This document shows, piece after piece, positions 2,025-9,841 of a DNA stretch of 52,349 bases. The stretch comes from Chloroflexota bacterium. Its GTDB lineage: Bacteria; Chloroflexota; Ktedonobacteria; Ktedonobacterales; JACDGC01. How positions within the stretch are numbered: the stretch's first letter is position 1; every line of letters begins with the position of its first letter. Both the position numbers and the translations under genes were made by a program. The DNA is taken from positions 1 through 52,349 of the forward strand of contig JAJYBV010000009.1 in assembly GCA_021778805.1 (NCBI GenBank), in the 5' to 3' direction. The notes beneath the pieces were generated by a model that was not told the origin of the DNA, searched no databases, and saw only the letters and a program-made list of their open reading frames with translations.

Positions 2025-2461
2025 AGATCTATCTGCTGCTCCTACTGTAATTATTGATTTTTTTCCGTTGATACGCCTGTTCGGTGTTGTTATATAACCT
2101 GCACAAACACATAGTATCCGAAAAGCAGCCGTTCTTTTTCATTATGTCACAGCGGGCGCAGTTACAATACACCGCCAATTTCAATATTTTCGCGGAAATA
2201 TGGCTATTATTACCGAGGGAATAGCCAGTGTGTGGTATACTGGCAAATAGCTATTAGTATGAACGCCAATCCTTTGGCCGGCTATTGACCGTAACGCAAT
2301 GCCGCCAAAGAGGAATCGTCACCGAATAAAACTTTCCAAATCACACATCCGGTTTTGGGAAGATAGACTTGGGGCCGTCCCCTTGCTCCGGCATCCGGTC
2401 CTTGTTCCAGGTCTTGCCTCCGCCTTTTGCATCTTCAACTTGACAGACATGTGGAGCTATT

Positions 2462-3571
2462 ATGACATTTCCGCTCGGACCCATTCACCCTGCCTTGCCG
2501 GAGCCAATCAGTTTAAAATTGGCCTTGCACGGAGAGAAAATTACAGGCGTAGAAACGCATACGGGATATTTAAAACGCAGCGTTGAAACCCTGATGCTGC
2601 AAAAAAATCTTGCAGATGCGCTGATTTTGGCTGAACGAATCTGCGGAACCTGCGGCTACAGCCATCGTTATGCGCTTTGCCTTGCTATTGAATCGCTTGC
2701 CGGAATAACACCGCCGCCGCGCGCACAAGCATTGCGCGTTGTATTCGCCGAAGTAGAGCGCATATTAGCGCGGCTGTGGACCCTGGCGCATATTGGGCGC
2801 GCGGCAGAATTAGGCGCGCTGTATACAGGATCGCTTGAGGCGCGCGAGGTACTGTTTGAAGCGTGCGCCGACGCCGCGGATAAACGACTGTTTTGGGAGA
2901 TTGCCGTTCCGGGCGGTGTACAAAATATTCAAGATCCGCAAGCAATAATCGACGCCATACAAGCATTGCAATCGGTACTTGCTCCGTTTGATCGGTTGCT
3001 TTCCCCGAAAGGGGCGCTGGTAAACCGCGCCAATTCGGTTGGAATAGTAACGCAAGACGCCGCAGAAGAAATGTGCATGAGCGGACCCGGCGCGCGCGCC
3101 GCGGGTGTTATGCGCGATGTACGGCGGGATGCGCCATATGATATCTATGCGCAAATGGCGGATATTCTTTCAACAGACCCTATCACGGGCTTTATAGCCG
3201 GCAGTGCGCCGGCGCGGGCATATCAAATGCTGATGGATATTCAGGAAAGCATGCGAATCATTACCGCAATATTTGATGAACTGCCCGATGGGCAGGAACG
3301 CGCAGCGTTGCCGGATATTTTACCGCCCGAAAAAACCGCTGTTACGATAGAAGGAGCGCGCGGCGCAGAAACGCTAACGCTTGAATTAAACGCCAACCGC
3401 GGAACCAACGCCGACCTTACCATGCCCGGATTTATTAAATCTATTGCTTTTGCCACCCCAAGCGGTGAAAATATCGGAGCGCTTCCGGTTATATTACAAG
3501 AAACTTTGCTTTCAGATGCGCTGATAGCGCTTTCCAGCCTGGATCTTTGCATTGCCTGTGTAGATAAATAA
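2462..3571 (+). CDS. Group-4 (energy-converting, Ech/Mbh-like) [NiFe]-hydrogenase large subunit, NuoD-like, 369 aa.
   Basis: The N-terminus GPIHPALPEPISLKL resembles the EchE/NuoD N-terminus. The L1 motif R-I-C-G-T-C-G-Y-S-H matches RxCGxCxxxH. The protein ends with the L2 motif D-L-C-I-A-C-V-D-K, matching [DE][PL]CxxCx[DE][RK]. There is no C-terminal extension after L2, as in Ech-type enzymes. GGAG lies 8 nt upstream of the ATG. Confidence 0.75.
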   Translation: MTFPLGPIHPALPEPISLKLALHGEKITGVETHTGYLKRSVETLMLQKNLADALILAERICGTCGYSHRYALCLAIESLAGITPPPRAQALRVVFAEVERILARLWTLAHIGRAAELGALYTGSLEAREVLFEACADAADKRLFWEIAVPGGVQNIQDPQAIIDAIQALQSVLAPFDRLLSPKGALVNRANSVGIVTQDAAEEMCMSGPGARAAGVMRDVRRDAPYDIYAQMADILSTDPITGFIAGSAPARAYQMLMDIQESMRIITAIFDELPDGQERAALPDILPPEKTAVTIEGARGAETLTLELNANRGTNADLTMPGFIKSIAFATPSGENIGALPVILQETLLSDALIALSSLDLCIACVDK

Positions 3572-3577
3572 CGCAGC

Positions 3578-5767
3578 GTGGGTTCAGGATTCTATGAGAA
3601 AGGTACTGCAATGCTCACACTCTCGAATCTTTCACTTGCGCTGATTTTGGCGCCATTTTTGGCAGGGGTTATCCTTGCCGCCGCCGGCGCGCGCCTGCCC
3701 CGCATTGCGGGTATTGCGATTGCCCTGCTTGCGGCTGTCATTTCCATTGCCGCCGCGTTAACACTGGCCGGCAATGTTTTTCCCGACGGCCCAATCGTTT
3801 TTGCGTTCCCCCTATTTGGCGCGGCTATCGGTCAGCGATTGGATGGATTAAGCGCATATGCGTTAATCGGTTTAACCGTTTGGGTTATCCCTATCCTTTT
3901 GTGGGTTACATTTCCGCGCAGCAAACCAAATTTCCGGCCAATGGGCCTTGTTCTGCTGGCTTCTGCGCTAACTAGCGGCGCTATACTAAACGATAATATT
4001 ATTCTTATCGCGCTTTGCTGGCTGGGAGCCGCCGTTATGGCGTGGCTGATTACCGTTTCTGAAGATATTGCCGGTGGCGCCGAAAACGTTTACCAAACCC
4101 GCTGGGTCGATTTAGTTACCCTTGGCGCCGGCCCAATTTTATTTGTATTGACAATGGTTCCGGTAATGGCAGCGCTGAAAAAAAGCTCCCTGCTCGATAT
4201 AACCGGAGTCACTGTAAATGGCGCATCTCCATTTTCTTTTTTAAACGCTGCGCTGATAGTTGTCGCGTTTTTGTTTGCGCTGGGCGCATATCCCTTTATG
4301 TTGTGGATTCGCCGCGCCGCGCTGGGCATTTCGTCCCATGGGCTGGGTATTATCGGGTTGCTGTACCTTCCCGCCGGTCTTATTTTATTTGCGCGGGTAA
4401 GCTCCGTCATCAATAACCCATGGCCGTCTGTTCCTATCGGCATCGGCTTCTCACTCAACACAATTTACATTATTTTCGGTGTCGCAACTGTTTTCGCCGC
4501 ATCCATAACACTGATGGCGGAGCGCGATATTATGGCTATTGCCCTGCTGTTAGCCGAAAATATTGCAGGGTGGATGATTATTGCTATCGGTTCAGGAAAC
4601 AGCCAAGCGTTAGTTGGCGTTACCTTGCTGCTTGCCGGGTATATCGCCGCGCTGGGCGCATTGGTTGCGGTTATAGCGTCTTTGGAATGCCGCTTAATCA
4701 AAGAGGTTTCCATTGATTCTCTGAAGGGGTTTGCCAAATTTTTACCGCTGCATTTTATTGCGGCGGCAATTGCGCTGCTGTGCCTTGCCGGCGCGCCGCT
4801 TTTGATTGGCTTCGCTTCCTTTGCTCTTATAAATCTTGCGATAGCCAAGTGGGGTGGTTTTGCGTTTTTAGCCGGCGGCGTACTTTGGGTAAGTCAAGGA
4901 TTTATTGCAATTGCCGTCACCCGATACCTTGCCTCATTCTTGGCGCCAAACAACAGCCTTTCCAATGAAGAAACAAATTTATTGCGGTCCGGCGCATCTG
5001 AGGCGCCGTTATTCAGTCTGCCGATTATTATCATGCTGATGGTAAGCATTGCCCCGCAGATGCTTTTGGCGCCGGTCAATCTTATTCCCGGGTTAGGGCA
5101 GCTTGCCGCCGCCTCGTTACTGAACCAAGGTGTGGAAATTCCTAATATTGCAATTTCTATGTTTGGCATTCAAACAACCGGCATATCTTGGGAACCGGGT
5201 TTGTTTTGGATCTTTGGGCTGCTGCTTTTTGCTATTGCGGCGCTGCTTTCCGGAGCCGTTGCTGTAAAAGGCAGCACGTTGCCTGCATTTGCCGGCGGCG
5301 AGCCGTTCCGCGAAGAAGAGATGAACGGATTTACTCCTTGGGCAACTGTTACCCGCATAGCGCGAACCCCGCTTATTTTGCCAGGCCCCGCAAAATGGCG
5401 CAATGATTTAGGCGCTATTGATATTGAAGGTGAACAAGAAAACAGCTCTGAAACAGACACCGACATAGAAGATGAAGGTGAAGCTGAAGCGGATGAAAAC
5501 GCAGACGAAGCAAACGCCGCGACAGTAGTCCCGGAAAAAGCGCATCCAGCTCCAAAATCAGAGACGCCGCGCGCGCATGCACAAAAAACATCGGCCGGCA
5601 AGCAGCCATCAGTGGAGACTAAACAAGAAAAAACCACTGCCGCAGCCACAGTAAATCCAAAGCCGGCCGCCACGACGCCAGCTAAAATTCCACAGAAAAA
5701 TATTCCGCCAAACACACAGCGTCAATCTCAAAAGAAGCATAAGGGGGGGCATAGCCATGGCCGCTAA
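3578..5767 (+). CDS. Polytopic membrane protein with about 14 TM helices, probably a highly degenerate antiporter-like (NuoL/MrpA/EchA-like) subunit, followed by a roughly 170-aa disordered acidic and K/P/T/A-rich C-terminal tail.
   Basis: It is tightly packed between the hydrogenase large and small subunit genes and overlaps the next gene by 11 nt. It is strongly hydrophobic for about 560 aa. The stretch LLLAENIAGWMIIAIGSG loosely resembles the NuoL/M 'LAYSSISHMGFVLIAIG' region but lacks the His. I could not find the canonical GPTPVSALIHAATMV motif by eye. The tail contains EGEQENSSETDTDIEDEGEAEADENADEA followed by PAPKSETPRAHAQKTSAGKQPSVETKQEK. The track start is a GTG at 3578. An in-frame ATG at 3611 (MLTLSNLS) has a GAGAAAGG Shine-Dalgarno-like sequence and may be the true start. 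Confidence 0.5.
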   Translation: MGSGFYEKGTAMLTLSNLSLALILAPFLAGVILAAAGARLPRIAGIAIALLAAVISIAAALTLAGNVFPDGPIVFAFPLFGAAIGQRLDGLSAYALIGLTVWVIPILLWVTFPRSKPNFRPMGLVLLASALTSGAILNDNIILIALCWLGAAVMAWLITVSEDIAGGAENVYQTRWVDLVTLGAGPILFVLTMVPVMAALKKSSLLDITGVTVNGASPFSFLNAALIVVAFLFALGAYPFMLWIRRAALGISSHGLGIIGLLYLPAGLILFARVSSVINNPWPSVPIGIGFSLNTIYIIFGVATVFAASITLMAERDIMAIALLLAENIAGWMIIAIGSGNSQALVGVTLLLAGYIAALGALVAVIASLECRLIKEVSIDSLKGFAKFLPLHFIAAAIALLCLAGAPLLIGFASFALINLAIAKWGGFAFLAGGVLWVSQGFIAIAVTRYLASFLAPNNSLSNEETNLLRSGASEAPLFSLPIIIMLMVSIAPQMLLAPVNLIPGLGQLAAASLLNQGVEIPNIAISMFGIQTTGISWEPGLFWIFGLLLFAIAALLSGAVAVKGSTLPAFAGGEPFREEEMNGFTPWATVTRIARTPLILPGPAKWRNDLGAIDIEGEQENSSETDTDIEDEGEAEADENADEANAATVVPEKAHPAPKSETPRAHAQKTSAGKQPSVETKQEKTTAAATVNPKPAATTPAKIPQKNIPPNTQRQSQKKHKGGHSHGR

Positions 5768-6221
5768 AAATCACGCAGTGTGGGTTTACCCCATCGCCAT
5801 GGGCGCATGCAATGGCTGCGATCAGCAAATTTTAGCGCTGAATGCGCCGGCGTATCAGCTGCGATCTATGGGCATTTCGTTTGTAAACAGCCCGCGGCAC
5901 GCCGATATTGTGCTGCTCACCGGTGTGTTAACAAAACGCATGCGCAGTATAGTAGAACGCACATTAGAGGCGGTTCCCAGCCCGCACGCACTGGTAGCAG
6001 TCGGAGATTGCGCCATTCATGGTGGCGTATTTGCCGATAATCCGCAAATTTTTGCCAACGCCTCTGATATATTAAATGTAAATATTGAAATTGCCGGCGA
6101 CCCTCCAACTCCGGATCAGATTATTGCGGCAATTGTTGAAGCTGCCCGTCAGTTAGATGAAGCCGATAAACCTGCAAATACCGCAGAATCAACACAAGAT
6201 GAGGAGGATTCGACTAAATGA
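5757..6221 (+). CDS. Group-4 [NiFe]-hydrogenase small subunit, NuoB-like, 154 aa, with a non-canonical proximal Fe-S ligand set.
   Basis: The motif V-G-D-C-A-I-H-G-G-V-F matches the NuoB/EchC GxCAxxGGxF cluster motif. The usual N-terminal CC pair is replaced by C-N-G-C. The C-terminal 'PGCPP' motif reads A-G-D-P-P-T-P, so the fourth Cys is Asp. GGGGGG lies 8 nt upstream of the ATG, and the gene overlaps the preceding gene by 11 nt, suggesting translational coupling. The C-terminus is an acidic tail. Confidence 0.7.
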   Translation: MAAKNHAVWVYPIAMGACNGCDQQILALNAPAYQLRSMGISFVNSPRHADIVLLTGVLTKRMRSIVERTLEAVPSPHALVAVGDCAIHGGVFADNPQIFANASDILNVNIEIAGDPPTPDQIIAAIVEAARQLDEADKPANTAESTQDEEDSTK

Positions 6222-7572: not shown

Positions 7573-7601
7573 TTGACAAAATGTTCTAAGTATGTTACAA
7601 T
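7573..7601 (+). promoter_or_regulatory. Near-consensus sigma70-type promoter for the 7667 gene.
   Basis: TTGACA (7573-7578), an exact 17-bp spacer, and TACAAT (7596-7601). Confidence 0.55.
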
Positions 7602-7666
7602 AAGAACATAGGTTTTACTATAACCAATTTTAAACAGATATTTCACCGCTTTTGAGGAGGCGTGAC

Positions 7667-8395
7667 ATGAATAAACAACCAAATGAATCAATTTATCCCG
7701 CCAATTGGCTTTTTGGCAAAGATTTTGATCCCTCAGAACATCTTATGAAAATCGATCGCTTTGATCGCGCAACTCAACGTAAAATCGTTAATGAATATAT
7801 GAATGTGCAAAATCGTCTGCTTTGGTTTATCCGCGACCAGCGCGCGATTATTGCTTCCGGCGCCGCTAAAGGCGCCTATGAAATAAAAACCGAATTAATA
7901 GAGCTGGATAGGCAGGTTGGCTGGGCGCATTTTAAAACCTACATCCGCGACACGCTGGGCAACGAAGCGGTTATGTATGGCTCCGAATCCGCGCGCGATT
8001 TTCCGGATTTTATTGAAAAAGCCAACACAAAATCATTGGGCCGCGCGCTGCTTCTGCTGGGTTACGGCACAGCGTTTGCCAACGAAATGGATGAGGAAGA
8101 TCGCTTTGTGGATGCTCCTCAATCTATTACAAAAGAACCGGCTGAACCCTATAAAACCGGCGCGGCCCAGCCTAAAACCAATACCGTTTCCGTGCTTCAC
8201 GAACCGGCGGCTGATTTTGCCAAAACTCCAGACCTGATGGCTACAGAACGGCAAAAAACTAGTATTCAAAAAATCTGCGCAAAACTAGGGCAGCCTGAAC
8301 CAGATATTAATTCAATGTCGTTCGACACCGCGCGGAATACACTGGCGCAATTAAGTGTGCTACTTCAACAAAAACGAACATTGACCGCCGTATAG
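7667..8395 (+). CDS. Hypothetical protein, about 243 aa.
   Basis: The ORF track starts at a TTG (7652). An ATG at 7667 sits 6 nt after GAGGAGG and is preferred. No family was recognised. The C-terminal third is low-complexity. The gene has its own strong promoter downstream of the hydrogenase cluster. Confidence 0.5.
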   Translation: MNKQPNESIYPANWLFGKDFDPSEHLMKIDRFDRATQRKIVNEYMNVQNRLLWFIRDQRAIIASGAAKGAYEIKTELIELDRQVGWAHFKTYIRDTLGNEAVMYGSESARDFPDFIEKANTKSLGRALLLLGYGTAFANEMDEEDRFVDAPQSITKEPAEPYKTGAAQPKTNTVSVLHEPAADFAKTPDLMATERQKTSIQKICAKLGQPEPDINSMSFDTARNTLAQLSVLLQQKRTLTAV

Positions 8396-8407: not shown

Positions 8408-9841
8408 CTATGGTTCTTCTGAATTTGCCGCCAACAACTCCGCGCGCTCTTTTTCCGCGGTAGTATGCGCGGCAAATATTGGCTGAAACGCAAAGTAATT
8501 CATCGGGCTGCGCCAGCCAAACCATAACGCCAACGGCGCAATCAACGGCAAATCATTTCGGTTAACCGGCCGAAACCACGCCCATGCTATCAATCCCACC
8601 CACACTCCAAATTCCATGCCGCTCCATAGTATATGCGGCCCAAAGGGAATGTCGCGGCTCAGCGCCAAACTAATCGGGCCAAACCCTATTGGATAAAATG
8701 AATCCGTCGCCGGAACCAGCACACTTTGAAACCACGCCACCGGGCTTAAGATGATAAACGGCAAATTGACGGCAAAAAAGACCGCAAACATCCACACACC
8801 ACCGGCAATTGCCGCTTTCCATCCGTCTTTTTTATAGATTGCAATGAAATAAAACGGCGCAAAAAACCACGCCAATTGTTTTATCGAACACGCCAATCCC
8901 ATCATTATCGCCGACGCGCGCCGGTTAGGGCTAAAAAACCACGCCGCAGCAATACACAAAATGACAATCACATCATAATTAACAAATATCGTATAATTCC
9001 AAATCGCCGGATTCAGCAGCGCGGCGGTAAGCATACTTGGGCGCTGCTCTGGCAAGGCGCGGCGCAGCAGCAAAAAAATTAATATGGCAAACGCCAATAA
9101 ATTCAGCCACAGCAACGATGGCATGCCAGCCCAAATAAATGGCGCGCCCAGCAGTAATATACCTGCTGGATAATTATGCACCGTGCGCGGATCAAACGCC
9201 GTAGTTGTTTTTTCGCCACTGGAAAAAACCTGGTGTATCACCACTTCCCGCGCCGCTATAGAAGGATAATTCAATGGGTTAGCGCCAAACGCATGAGCGC
9301 CCAGCACAGGTGTTGGTGTTTCACCCGGCCAACGCTGCAAAGCCTGCCAAAATGCCGCATTATCGGTATACGGGTTTACGCCATGCAAAATAAGATCAAT
9401 ATCCATATGTATAAACGCTATGGCGTCTACACGATAGTTTCCCGTCACCGCATCGGTAATTTGCGGCGCCGCAAAATTCGTTGCGGTAATAAAAAACGCC
9501 ATTATCCACACAATTTGAATAAGCCGGTACCACAGCGTATGCGATATTTTTTCATAAATCACTTGAACGCCTTTAGGTAGTTGATTATGCGAAGCAACCC
9601 ATAACAGGGCAAAAGCAGCTATCGCAAAAAGAATACCCGCCGGACCTTGCCAGCGCAGCAGCGCGCCTTCCCCGGGACTGACTATCGTTATCGCCTGGAA
9701 CAAAAAAAATTGTCCGGTCAATAATGTCATCCACCGCCAAGAAGGTGTGAACATAGCAATTAAAAAATTACCGGCTTTTTCCCATAGCCGAATAAATCGG
9801 CGGAGATAGTCGGCAAAAATAAAAGGTTGTGTGTGCATCAT
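8408..9841 (-). CDS. Integral membrane protein, 477 aa, likely a GT-C-type glycosyltransferase-like protein of the DUF2029 or ArnT/PMT class.
   Basis: It has about 12 TM helices with aromatic-rich periplasmic loops. The family call rests on general resemblance only. Confidence 0.35.
   Translation of the reverse strand: MMHTQPFIFADYLRRFIRLWEKAGNFLIAMFTPSWRWMTLLTGQFFLFQAITIVSPGEGALLRWQGPAGILFAIAAFALLWVASHNQLPKGVQVIYEKISHTLWYRLIQIVWIMAFFITATNFAAPQITDAVTGNYRVDAIAFIHMDIDLILHGVNPYTDNAAFWQALQRWPGETPTPVLGAHAFGANPLNYPSIAAREVVIHQVFSSGEKTTTAFDPRTVHNYPAGILLLGAPFIWAGMPSLLWLNLLAFAILIFLLLRRALPEQRPSMLTAALLNPAIWNYTIFVNYDVIVILCIAAAWFFSPNRRASAIMMGLACSIKQLAWFFAPFYFIAIYKKDGWKAAIAGGVWMFAVFFAVNLPFIILSPVAWFQSVLVPATDSFYPIGFGPISLALSRDIPFGPHILWSGMEFGVWVGLIAWAWFRPVNRNDLPLIAPLALWFGWRSPMNYFAFQPIFAAHTTAEKERAELLAANSEEP

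Follow-up and report, generated by a model that had tools for sequence, protein, structure and literature searches.

The window analysed here is a 52,349-nucleotide stretch (contig JAJYBV010000009.1 of assembly GCA_021778805.1, forward strand) from a Chloroflexota bacterium of the order Ktedonobacterales. Towards its left end lies a tightly packed operon of four genes, assigned by Pfam matches in the order NuoD-like large subunit, membrane subunit, NuoB-like small subunit and NuoH-like anchor (Table 1). The membrane subunit, encoded by gene 2 between the large and small subunit genes, is the subject of this report. It sits where an antiporter-like subunit is expected, as the first-pass annotation of this DNA had proposed; it keeps the antiporter fold, lacks the canonical charged residues of the membrane axis and ends in a long disordered tail. 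The longest open reading frame (ORF) at the locus runs from 3578 to 5767 on the forward strand and had been taken as the gene. The frame exists, but its GTG at 3578 is merely the longest possible start, and the ATG at 3611 was assigned as the start; a GAAAGG Shine-Dalgarno sequence lies 7 nt upstream of it, and the database proteins P0001 and P0002 (718 aa) begin there too. All residue numbers for the membrane subunit refer to the 718-aa protein unless stated otherwise. P0001 and the window protein differ by one residue, at position 484, where the window has Met (ATG at 5060-5062) and P0001 has Leu, so that the two stem from closely similar yet distinct assemblies.

Table 1. Features of the operon and of its membrane subunit (positions are those of the window, except in the last row, where they are preceded by the handle of the related locus)
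Feature	Position	Strand	Basis
Conserved 5' leader or promoter region of the operon	2331-2450	+	95-100% nucleotide identity to the orthologous locus L001
Large subunit, NuoD / [NiFe]-hydrogenase large-subunit-like, 369 aa	2462-3571	+	PF00346 and PF00374 matches
Membrane subunit: antiporter-like core, ND3-like loop and disordered tail, 718 aa plus stop	3611-5767	+	PF00361 match
Antiporter-like core, residues 1-555: 14 transmembrane helices, periplasmic loop, TMH15	3611-5275	+	AlphaFold2, profile alignment
TMH15, residues 529-546	5195-5248	+	Hydropathy, AlphaFold2 helix, alignment with TMH15 of MbsH'-type relatives
ND3-loop-like segment, residues 556-610	5276-5440	+	PAFAGGEP ... W.(T/D)(V/L) ... 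ARTP..LPGP.KWR.DLG
Acidic low-complexity block, residues 604-634, DIEGEQENSSETDTDIEDEGEAEADENADEA	5420-5512	+	Sequence, charge, pLDDT below 50
P/T/K/A/Q-rich basic block, residues 635-718, ending QKKHKGGHSHGR	5513-5764	+	Composition, charge
Shine-Dalgarno site AAGGGGGGG of the small-subunit gene	5741-5749	+	Within codons K711-G712-G713; genes overlap by 11 nt
Small subunit, NuoB-like, 154 aa	5757-6221	+	PF01058 match
NuoH / ND1 / MbhM-like membrane anchor, 330 aa	6218-7210	+	PF00146 match
Nth-like HhH-GPD gene in related loci	L006:12196-12933, L011:11949-12653, L012:5120-5812, L014:5136-5819, L016:7840-8550		

Hydropathy analysis and an AlphaFold2 model with a predicted template-modelling score (pTM) of 0.78 gave 15 transmembrane (TM) helices for the membrane subunit, the last of them (TMH15) ending at about residue 552. 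The protein matched the Pfam family PF00361 (Proton_antipo_M) only weakly, with 38.9 bits against a cutoff of 21.5, across residues 211-431 in the numbering of the 729-aa ORF and positions 71-284 of the 294 in the profile. TM7 was modelled as a broken helix (residues 210-224 and 230-238), as was TM12 (379-393 and 399-414). Foldseek comparison of the model returned TM-scores of up to 0.84 to MrpD, NdhD and NuoN, as well as matches to NuoM and a long match to HycC, all at 13-18% identity. The best solved relative of the family profile was Pyrococcus furiosus MbsH' (6u8y_X, E 2e-11), followed by MbhH; chain 6u8y_X was identified as MbsH' because its residues K217, K248, H336 and K399 match those named for that protein (PMC7684303). 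In the core, the ratio of nonsynonymous to synonymous substitution rates (dN/dS) was 0.14 when compared with an orthologue of 78% identity, indicating purifying selection. The membrane subunit is an MbsH'/HycC-type antiporter-like protein, divergent yet selected, with its fold intact. It had earlier been called degenerate, which is apt for the canonical charges described below but not for the gene as a whole: with this dN/dS, an intact fold and synteny that holds down to about 25% identity, it is not decaying.

In NuoL, NuoM and NuoN, the N-terminus and the beta-hairpin between TM2 and TM3 are periplasmic and the helix HL lies on the cytoplasmic side. The AlphaFold2 model has the same beta-hairpin at residues 62-77, and K/R-rich loops fall at predicted cytoplasmic positions. 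Given 15 TM helices and this homology-based topology, the loop and tail that follow TMH15 would be cytoplasmic, beside the peripheral arm.

The charged axis was examined in a MAFFT alignment of 34 family members and nine canonical relatives. The family comprises a core clade, to which the window belongs, and a more distant clade. At the position of the TM5 glutamate, the family residue is L, A, S, I, V or T. The TM7 lysine is replaced by Ala in 33 of the 34 members, and the position of the TM7 histidine is mostly apolar and never His. An apolar residue occupies the TM8 lysine position, which a HMMER profile alignment places at the invariant Pro254, and the TM11 His and Lys positions hold Leu, Val, Ile, Met or Phe. 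At the TM12 lysine position, Phe, Met or Ile is found in the window's clade and Arg in many distant-clade members. For P0001, the residues at TM5 Glu, TM7 Lys (His), TM8, TM11 His/Lys and TM12 are L, A (M), L, L/L and F. The K, H, K, K set is kept in full by the nine canonical relatives, most of which also keep the TM11 His/Lys.

Profile alignment to MbsH' confirmed that the hallmark TM7-TM8 motifs, which the first-pass annotation had failed to find by eye, are missing: the stretch aligned with the NuoL-type TM7/TM8 motifs reads FLFALGAYPFMLWIRRAALGISSHGLGIIGLLYLPAGLILF. The weak echo of a motif that had been pointed out, LLLAENIAGWMIIAIG, is the TM10 counterpart of LAYSSISQIGYILIGLG in the profile alignment. 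The suggestion that pumping residues had been lost was borne out for the canonical charges of TM5, TM7, TM8 and TM11, which are gone from all 34 sequences, and neither the TM7 nor the TM12 Lys/Glu, whose fate had been left to an alignment, is retained in the window's clade. That suggestion had been set against a confident PF00361 match with its charged residues intact; the match was found, yet the charged residues are not intact.

Gly, Pro, Trp and Ala account for nearly all residues that are invariant across the family. Few charges are conserved to this degree, namely D78 and R262, with R76, D128, R234/R235, D306 and R438 nearly invariant, and these charged residues are located close to the membrane boundary, either in loops or at the ends of predicted helices. 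In the NuoH-like partner, profile alignment to NuoH, Nqo8 and MbhM showed that the acidic ND1-loop motif GELTELSG is kept and that L/V replaces the canonical glutamate of the TM4 'YE' pair of the E-channel. From the pattern of substitutions we infer that the membrane subunit would no longer translocate ions by the canonical mechanism.

The segment that follows TMH15 (residues 556-610) had the lowest dN/dS within the gene, at 0.05. Ten positions are invariant in the core clade (P558, F560, G562, G563, P591, G592, P593, W596, R597 and D599), and the AlphaFold2 predicted local distance difference test score (pLDDT) was 80-87 over residues 581-600. Weak canonical matches of the family search (P0043 and P0050-P0063; 600-660 aa) carry F-x-G-G-E at the same site, followed by an amphipathic helix and then a terminal TM helix. 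When the family was aligned with these canonical relatives using hhalign, the probability was 99.7% and the alignment ran through FxGGE, with F560-A-G-G-E-P opposite it. The canonical relatives in turn aligned with MbsH' over its full length, including the loop, HL and TMH16 (E 4e-83), with F-V-G-G-E opposite Y-Q-S-G-N at MbsH' 537-541. In MbsH' the loop joining TMH15 to TMH16 is Loop 1, the counterpart of the ND3/NuoA loop (PMC7684303), and the corresponding loop of HycC is likewise an ND3-loop equivalent (10.1101/2022.03.21.484881). Three to four loops, this one among them, connect the active site with the membrane arm, and beyond this loop come helix HL and TMH16, by which the neighbouring antiporter-like subunit is clamped (PMC7684303; 10.1101/2022.03.21.484881). 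Residues 556-610 thus appear to be a homologue of the ND3-like interface loop rather than disordered filler.

Helix HL and TMH16 are absent from the family: no hydrophobic segment follows residue 552, and only short helices are present. Where the canonical relatives carry HL and LH(S/T)G...TMH16, the family members instead finish in low-complexity sequence that is acidic or basic. The C-terminus had been described as a disordered tail of about 170 residues, which is correct for about 115 of them; the first 50 or so (residues 556-610) are conserved and partly structured.

Beyond the last TM helix, about 160-165 residues contain no hydrophobic segment, and pLDDT was below 50 over residues 604-718. 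Hydrophobic residues (ILMFWVC) make up 7% of residues 605-718 and 46% of the core. The first-pass annotation had noted an acidic stretch followed by one rich in PAPK/TTPAK, and both the charge, which is -14 over residues 605-650 and +10 over residues 651-718, and the composition support this. Among 34 ORFs of the window, the tail holds the most acidic 40-residue segment (17 of 40 residues D/E, compared with 12 or fewer elsewhere) and the segment richest in P/T/K/A/Q/S (33 of 40). Residues 611-695 had a dN/dS of 0.33 and in-frame insertions and deletions (indels). An acidic block follows the linker in all 28 family members scored (33 were listed). All full-length core-clade members have a basic end, as do 7 of the 23 distant-clade members scored, the remainder of which have short, purely acidic tails. 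The acidic tail that had been noticed on the small subunit is also present, and recurs in all 11 loci examined with a net charge of -4 to -37. The tail had further been called unprecedented for this class of subunit. A long disordered tail in place of HL and TMH16 is indeed new, but NuoL, HycC and MbsH' all have C-terminal extensions, and Paracoccus denitrificans NuoL (8qby_L) has an acidic, Ala/Glu-rich low-complexity stretch at residues 517-549, in its C-terminal third. Metal binding by the His-rich terminus HKGGHSHGR was considered and rejected as a family feature, most relatives having no His there.

The extreme C-terminus is strongly conserved. In most of 10 loci, a site equivalent to the embedded Shine-Dalgarno sequence of Table 1 is present (AAGGGAGG, AAAGGAGG or GGGAGG), with a weaker one, GAGGA, in L012. 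The site falls within the last eight or so codons and reads as K-G-G or G-G-K/R, and in all 10 loci the small-subunit gene starts inside the last codons of the membrane-subunit gene. The proportion of synonymous differences (pS) in the last 23 codons was 0.07, compared with 0.45-0.60 elsewhere (two orthologues), and nucleotide identity was 98% at 5697-5756. The terminal K-G-G motif is conserved because the ribosome-binding site of the small-subunit gene lies within the coding sequence, and the conserved C-terminal end would be largely a by-product of translational coupling, constrained at the nucleotide level. The operon junctions in general (5697-5786 and 3501-3680) are peaks of nucleotide conservation, at 95-98%. 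Each downstream gene has its Shine-Dalgarno site within the preceding coding sequence, and this, together with overlaps of 11 nt and 4 nt, indicates translational coupling.

The family came to light when 1.84 billion representative proteins were scanned exhaustively with HMMER, which gave 62 matches at E < 1e-3 and 12 at E < 1e-30. A word-indexed protein search found only two close homologues when the single protein was used, and was swamped by MrpA when a 23-sequence profile was used. All members of the membrane-subunit family derive from metagenomes or metagenome-assembled genomes (MAGs), and where a name is given the sole source label is the COG 'formate hydrogenlyase subunit 3 / MnhD'. No NCBIfam model reached its cutoff for the membrane subunit. 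A scan of species-representative genomes with a 5-sequence alignment, which recovers the core clade only, yielded six loci, five of them titled Ktedonobacteria or Ktedonobacterales MAGs and one, a short partial match, labelled Proteobacteria. Full-text literature searches on Ehr, on group 4 hydrogenases in Ktedonobacteria and on antiporter-like subunits without lysines yielded no account of the family.

The gene order large, membrane, small, NuoH-like is kept in all recovered loci (L001-L004, L006, L010-L017 and one JGI contig without DNA). This four-gene synteny extends over at least 13 loci of about 25-80% identity, though the flanking genes differ, and every locus examined has a single PF00361 gene. 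NuoI/EchF-like genes (EchF/MbhN/HycF), NuoC- or EchD-like genes and Hyp genes were not found beside the cluster in any recovered locus. The search for a subunit of the NuoI/EchF/MbhN/HycF type, with 2x[4Fe-4S], covered the operon, the remainder of the window and the regions flanking the homologous loci and found none; such a subunit could be encoded at another place in the genome. No hyp genes were found among the large ORFs of the 52-kb window.

The large subunit of the window retains both CxxC pairs, ERICGTCGYSHR and DLCIACVDK, and has no C-terminal extension; among solved structures it is closest to P. furiosus MbhL (6cfw_L, full-length match, E 1e-50). Both cysteine pairs are intact in seven of 10 readable loci. 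One Ni-Fe cysteine has been lost in L006 (6782-7888; C-terminal CxxD), in L010 (238-1266) and in L013, the latter two having an N-terminal CxxA. Because some members have lost one Ni-Fe cysteine, the family straddles the boundary between hydrogenases and Ehr-like proteins. The small subunit of the window has three of the four proximal-cluster cysteines (C18, C21 and C85), with GDPP where GCPP is canonical. At the fourth position, every core-clade sequence has Asp, Asn or Ser, and a Cys occurs in only two of 11 loci, both from the distant clade. In L012 and L014, three or four cluster cysteines are missing from the small subunit, although the large subunit still has its full set of four Ni-Fe cysteines. 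With cysteines lost in this mosaic fashion, electron transfer through the small subunit cannot be a function conserved across the family. There is a precedent in MbsJ for a proximal cluster coordinated by three cysteines only (PMC7684303), and a three-Cys-plus-Asp cluster is possible in the small subunit of the window.

Taken together, these results point, with reasonable probability, to a non-pumping scaffold that delivers an interface loop and in which the clamp has been replaced by a disordered tail. The membrane subunit would be the single antiporter-like subunit of a self-contained four-gene complex, where it would be retained as a scaffold in the membrane, packed against the NuoH-like subunit and bringing TMH15 and the interface loop into the cluster of loops that surrounds the active site. 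The HL/TMH16 clamp may have become dispensable and been replaced because there is no second antiporter-like subunit to hold. The acidic tails of the membrane and small subunits could together form a negatively charged, flexible cytoplasmic fringe. The most plausible role of the tail, speculatively, would be electrostatic, in steering or excluding partners, or else that of an entropic spacer; our confidence in any specific tail function is low. A further-reaching reading, which we put forward tentatively and consider doubtful, is that the family is a new class: a four-subunit, pump-dead and partly redox-crippled descendant of Mbh/Mbx with a non-energy-conserving job, in which the acidic tails form a new functional interface. 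Candidate jobs would be sensing of H2, redox state or metals, or passive, non-coupled H2 turnover, with the antiporter-like subunit purely architectural.

Some observations weigh against this account. Against the proposed electrostatic role of the tail, most distant-clade members have no basic block. No PDB match was obtained with a profile restricted to the TMH15-loop segment, and homology to the ND3 loop therefore rests on the two-step alignment chain described above. In the distant clade, Arg is kept at the TM12 position and extra Glu residues occur near TM4/TM5, from which a non-canonical ion pathway is conceivable. HycC tolerates loss of the TM7 lysine, having Leu there, yet formate hydrogenlyase (FHL) may still handle protons (10.1101/2022.03.21.484881). 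The subunit could thus still be an ion translocator that uses non-canonical polar residues or bound water, or could serve catalytic proton uptake as proposed for HycC. Consistent with this, the fold is intact including the discontinuous TM7 and TM12, the core is under purifying selection, the distant clade adds conserved E/S and G-E motifs around TM4-TM5 to its TM12 Arg, and HycC itself works with Leu at the TM7 lysine position (10.1101/2022.03.21.484881). We nevertheless consider it unlikely, as five to six independent canonical positions are all apolar in the window's clade, the TM4 glutamate of the NuoH-like E-channel has gone too, and no substitute charged position is common to both clades; the invariant residues, nearly all Gly, Pro, Trp or Ala with the charged ones confined to loops and helix ends near the membrane boundary, argue in the same direction.

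The composition of the basic end (PAPK/TTPAK/KKHK, net charge +10) resembles that of a histone-H1/HupB-like module, which might bind a polyanion (DNA, RNA, polyphosphate or anionic lipid) as a tether, or link the complex to the Nth-like gene that lies directly downstream in five loci and sometimes overlaps the NuoH-like stop codon. This is very unlikely: the window has no Nth-like neighbour and its downstream gene has its own strong promoter-like site, most distant-clade members have no basic block, the embedded Shine-Dalgarno site explains part of the basic terminus, and the tail shows no regular repeats. The patchy erosion of redox ligands (in the small subunits of L012 and L014, at the fourth Cys position, filled in only two of 11 loci, and at the Ni-Fe Cys of L006, L010 and L013), together with the absence of NuoI/EchF-like or Hyp genes nearby, would fit a four-gene module that is an evolutionary relic heading for loss, the membrane subunit and its tail being effectively neutral remnants. 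That too is highly improbable given the dN/dS of 0.14 in the core and 0.05 in the linker, the intact ORFs, the gene order and translational coupling kept in at least 13 loci of about 25-80% identity, and the conservation of junctions and leader at the nucleotide level. An artefactual tail, produced by a frameshift, an assembly error or a mistakenly fused ORF, might be suspected from the low-complexity sequence and from a 181-aa ORF on the opposite strand (5170-5715) that overlaps the tail-coding region. There is next to no likelihood of this, however, as the 718-aa protein recurs in an independent assembly with one residue different and at 78% identity in others, the architecture is found in more than 30 family representatives from unrelated metagenomes, the indels are in frame with dN/dS below 1 (0.33), and the small-subunit gene always starts in the last codons. 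The earlier annotation had itself named a frameshift or fused frame as the finding that would overturn its account of the tail, and nothing of the kind was found.

Among the surroundings of the operon, the leader listed in Table 1 stands out, since its identity to L001 compares with 80% over the whole operon. No RNA family was matched when the operon and the conserved leader were searched against Rfam, and the untranslated leader is a candidate regulatory element. The gene downstream of the operon (7652-8395, forward strand) encodes a 247-aa soluble protein with no Pfam match and is preceded by a near-consensus promoter-like site at 7573-7601; because it carries its own promoter-like site, the transcription unit was taken to comprise four genes. 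It was rejected as a member of the system, having no Pfam match and its own promoter-like site, with other genes in its place in more distant loci. On the reverse strand, 8408-9841 encodes a 477-aa, apparently multi-pass membrane protein with hydrophobic stretches throughout and no Pfam match. Both genes are conserved beside the operon in the closest relatives (L001, L003 and L004). Synteny with L003 and L004 suggests that, to the left and divergent from the operon, a GH31 glycoside hydrolase gene (1 to about 2024, reverse strand) probably runs off the window end; truncated by that edge, it is missing from the ORF list. Elsewhere the window carries common housekeeping genes of bacteria (PheST, homoserine dehydrogenase, FtsW/RodA and others). 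In the five related loci of Table 1, the gene directly downstream of the NuoH-like gene encodes an Nth-like HhH-GPD protein (endonuclease III, with the iron-sulfur motif C-x6-C-x2-C-x5-C), which in two of the five abuts or overlaps the NuoH-like stop codon; in the window it does not occupy that position.

In complex I, Mrp, Mbh and FHL, antiporter-like subunits are what drives protons across the membrane. How redox chemistry is coupled to the pumps, and whether the single subunit of minimal enzymes such as FHL and Ech pumps at all, is still debated. The family described here keeps the fold, the ND3-like loop and the NuoH-like partner under selection without the charged axis, and so separates a structural role from a transport role. 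It could serve as a ready-made pump-dead control for biochemical and structural work, and may represent a new way of using the complex I module outside bioenergetics. When metabolism is reconstructed from Ktedonobacteria MAGs, ion translocation would be wrongly read from a PF00361 match or from the label 'formate hydrogenlyase subunit 3 / MnhD'. The tail also provides an example of an embedded ribosome-binding site fixing the terminal sequence of a protein.

The complex appears to derive from the Mbh/Mbx/Ech branch of the group 4 [NiFe]-hydrogenases, and the named genome records are Ktedonobacteria MAGs. The family belongs to the superfamily of complex I and group 4 hydrogenases, yet it departs from functional antiporter-like subunits in its charged axis, from the MbsH'/HycC fusion in HL and TMH16, from canonical group 4 hydrogenases in the four-Cys proximal cluster and the NuoI-like subunit, and from Ehr, which is defined by missing Ni-Fe ligands and several antiporter-like subunits. 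With P. furiosus MbsH', the window subunit shares the antiporter fold, an ND3-like TMH15 and interface loop fused after TM14, and a place adjoining a NuoH-like anchor in a complex derived from group 4 hydrogenases. MbsH', however, has the full charged axis (E128, K217, K248, H336 and K399), and these positions are apolar in the window subunit; it also has HL and TMH16 clamping a second antiporter-like subunit, whereas the window has the disordered tail, no second such subunit and no Mrp module. Escherichia coli HycC (7Z0S chain C) is likewise the only antiporter-like subunit in a minimal membrane arm, which is made up of HycC and HycD, and Foldseek gave TM-scores to it of 0.59 (query-normalised) and 0.68 (target-normalised). 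Residues 513-608 of HycC are ND3-like and supply the ND3 loop, and its TM7 Lys has become Leu (10.1101/2022.03.21.484881). HycC retains the TM5 Glu, the TM8 Lys, the TM11 His/Lys, the TM12 Glu, a short HL and TMH16, none of which was found in the window subunit, and FHL further contains HycF (NuoI-like), HycB and FdhF, partner genes that were not found in the window.

The group 4 enzymes Ech and Mbh (EchABCDEF and MbhA-N) also combine NuoD-, NuoB- and NuoH-like subunits with one antiporter-like subunit and both CxxC pairs. The window complex differs from them in having only four genes, in the replacement of the fourth proximal-cluster Cys throughout the core clade and in the missing charged axis. 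Ehr complexes have a large subunit without Ni-Fe ligands and several Mrp antiporter-like subunits thought to translocate charge (PMC6349859). They resemble the family in being related to group 4 and in their eroded metal ligands, and L010 and L013, with one Ni-Fe cysteine lost, fit in part; in contrast, the large subunit of the window keeps its four cysteines, and its single antiporter-like subunit is charge-less. When compared with the C-terminal extension of NuoL/ND5 (TM15, HL and TM16), the tail of the window subunit begins at the same point, on the cytoplasmic side after TM15. The NuoL extension is a structured amphipathic clamp with a TM anchor, whereas the tail is an unanchored, disordered polyampholyte of about 115 residues, and this long disordered tail in place of helix HL and TMH16 is the new element of the family.

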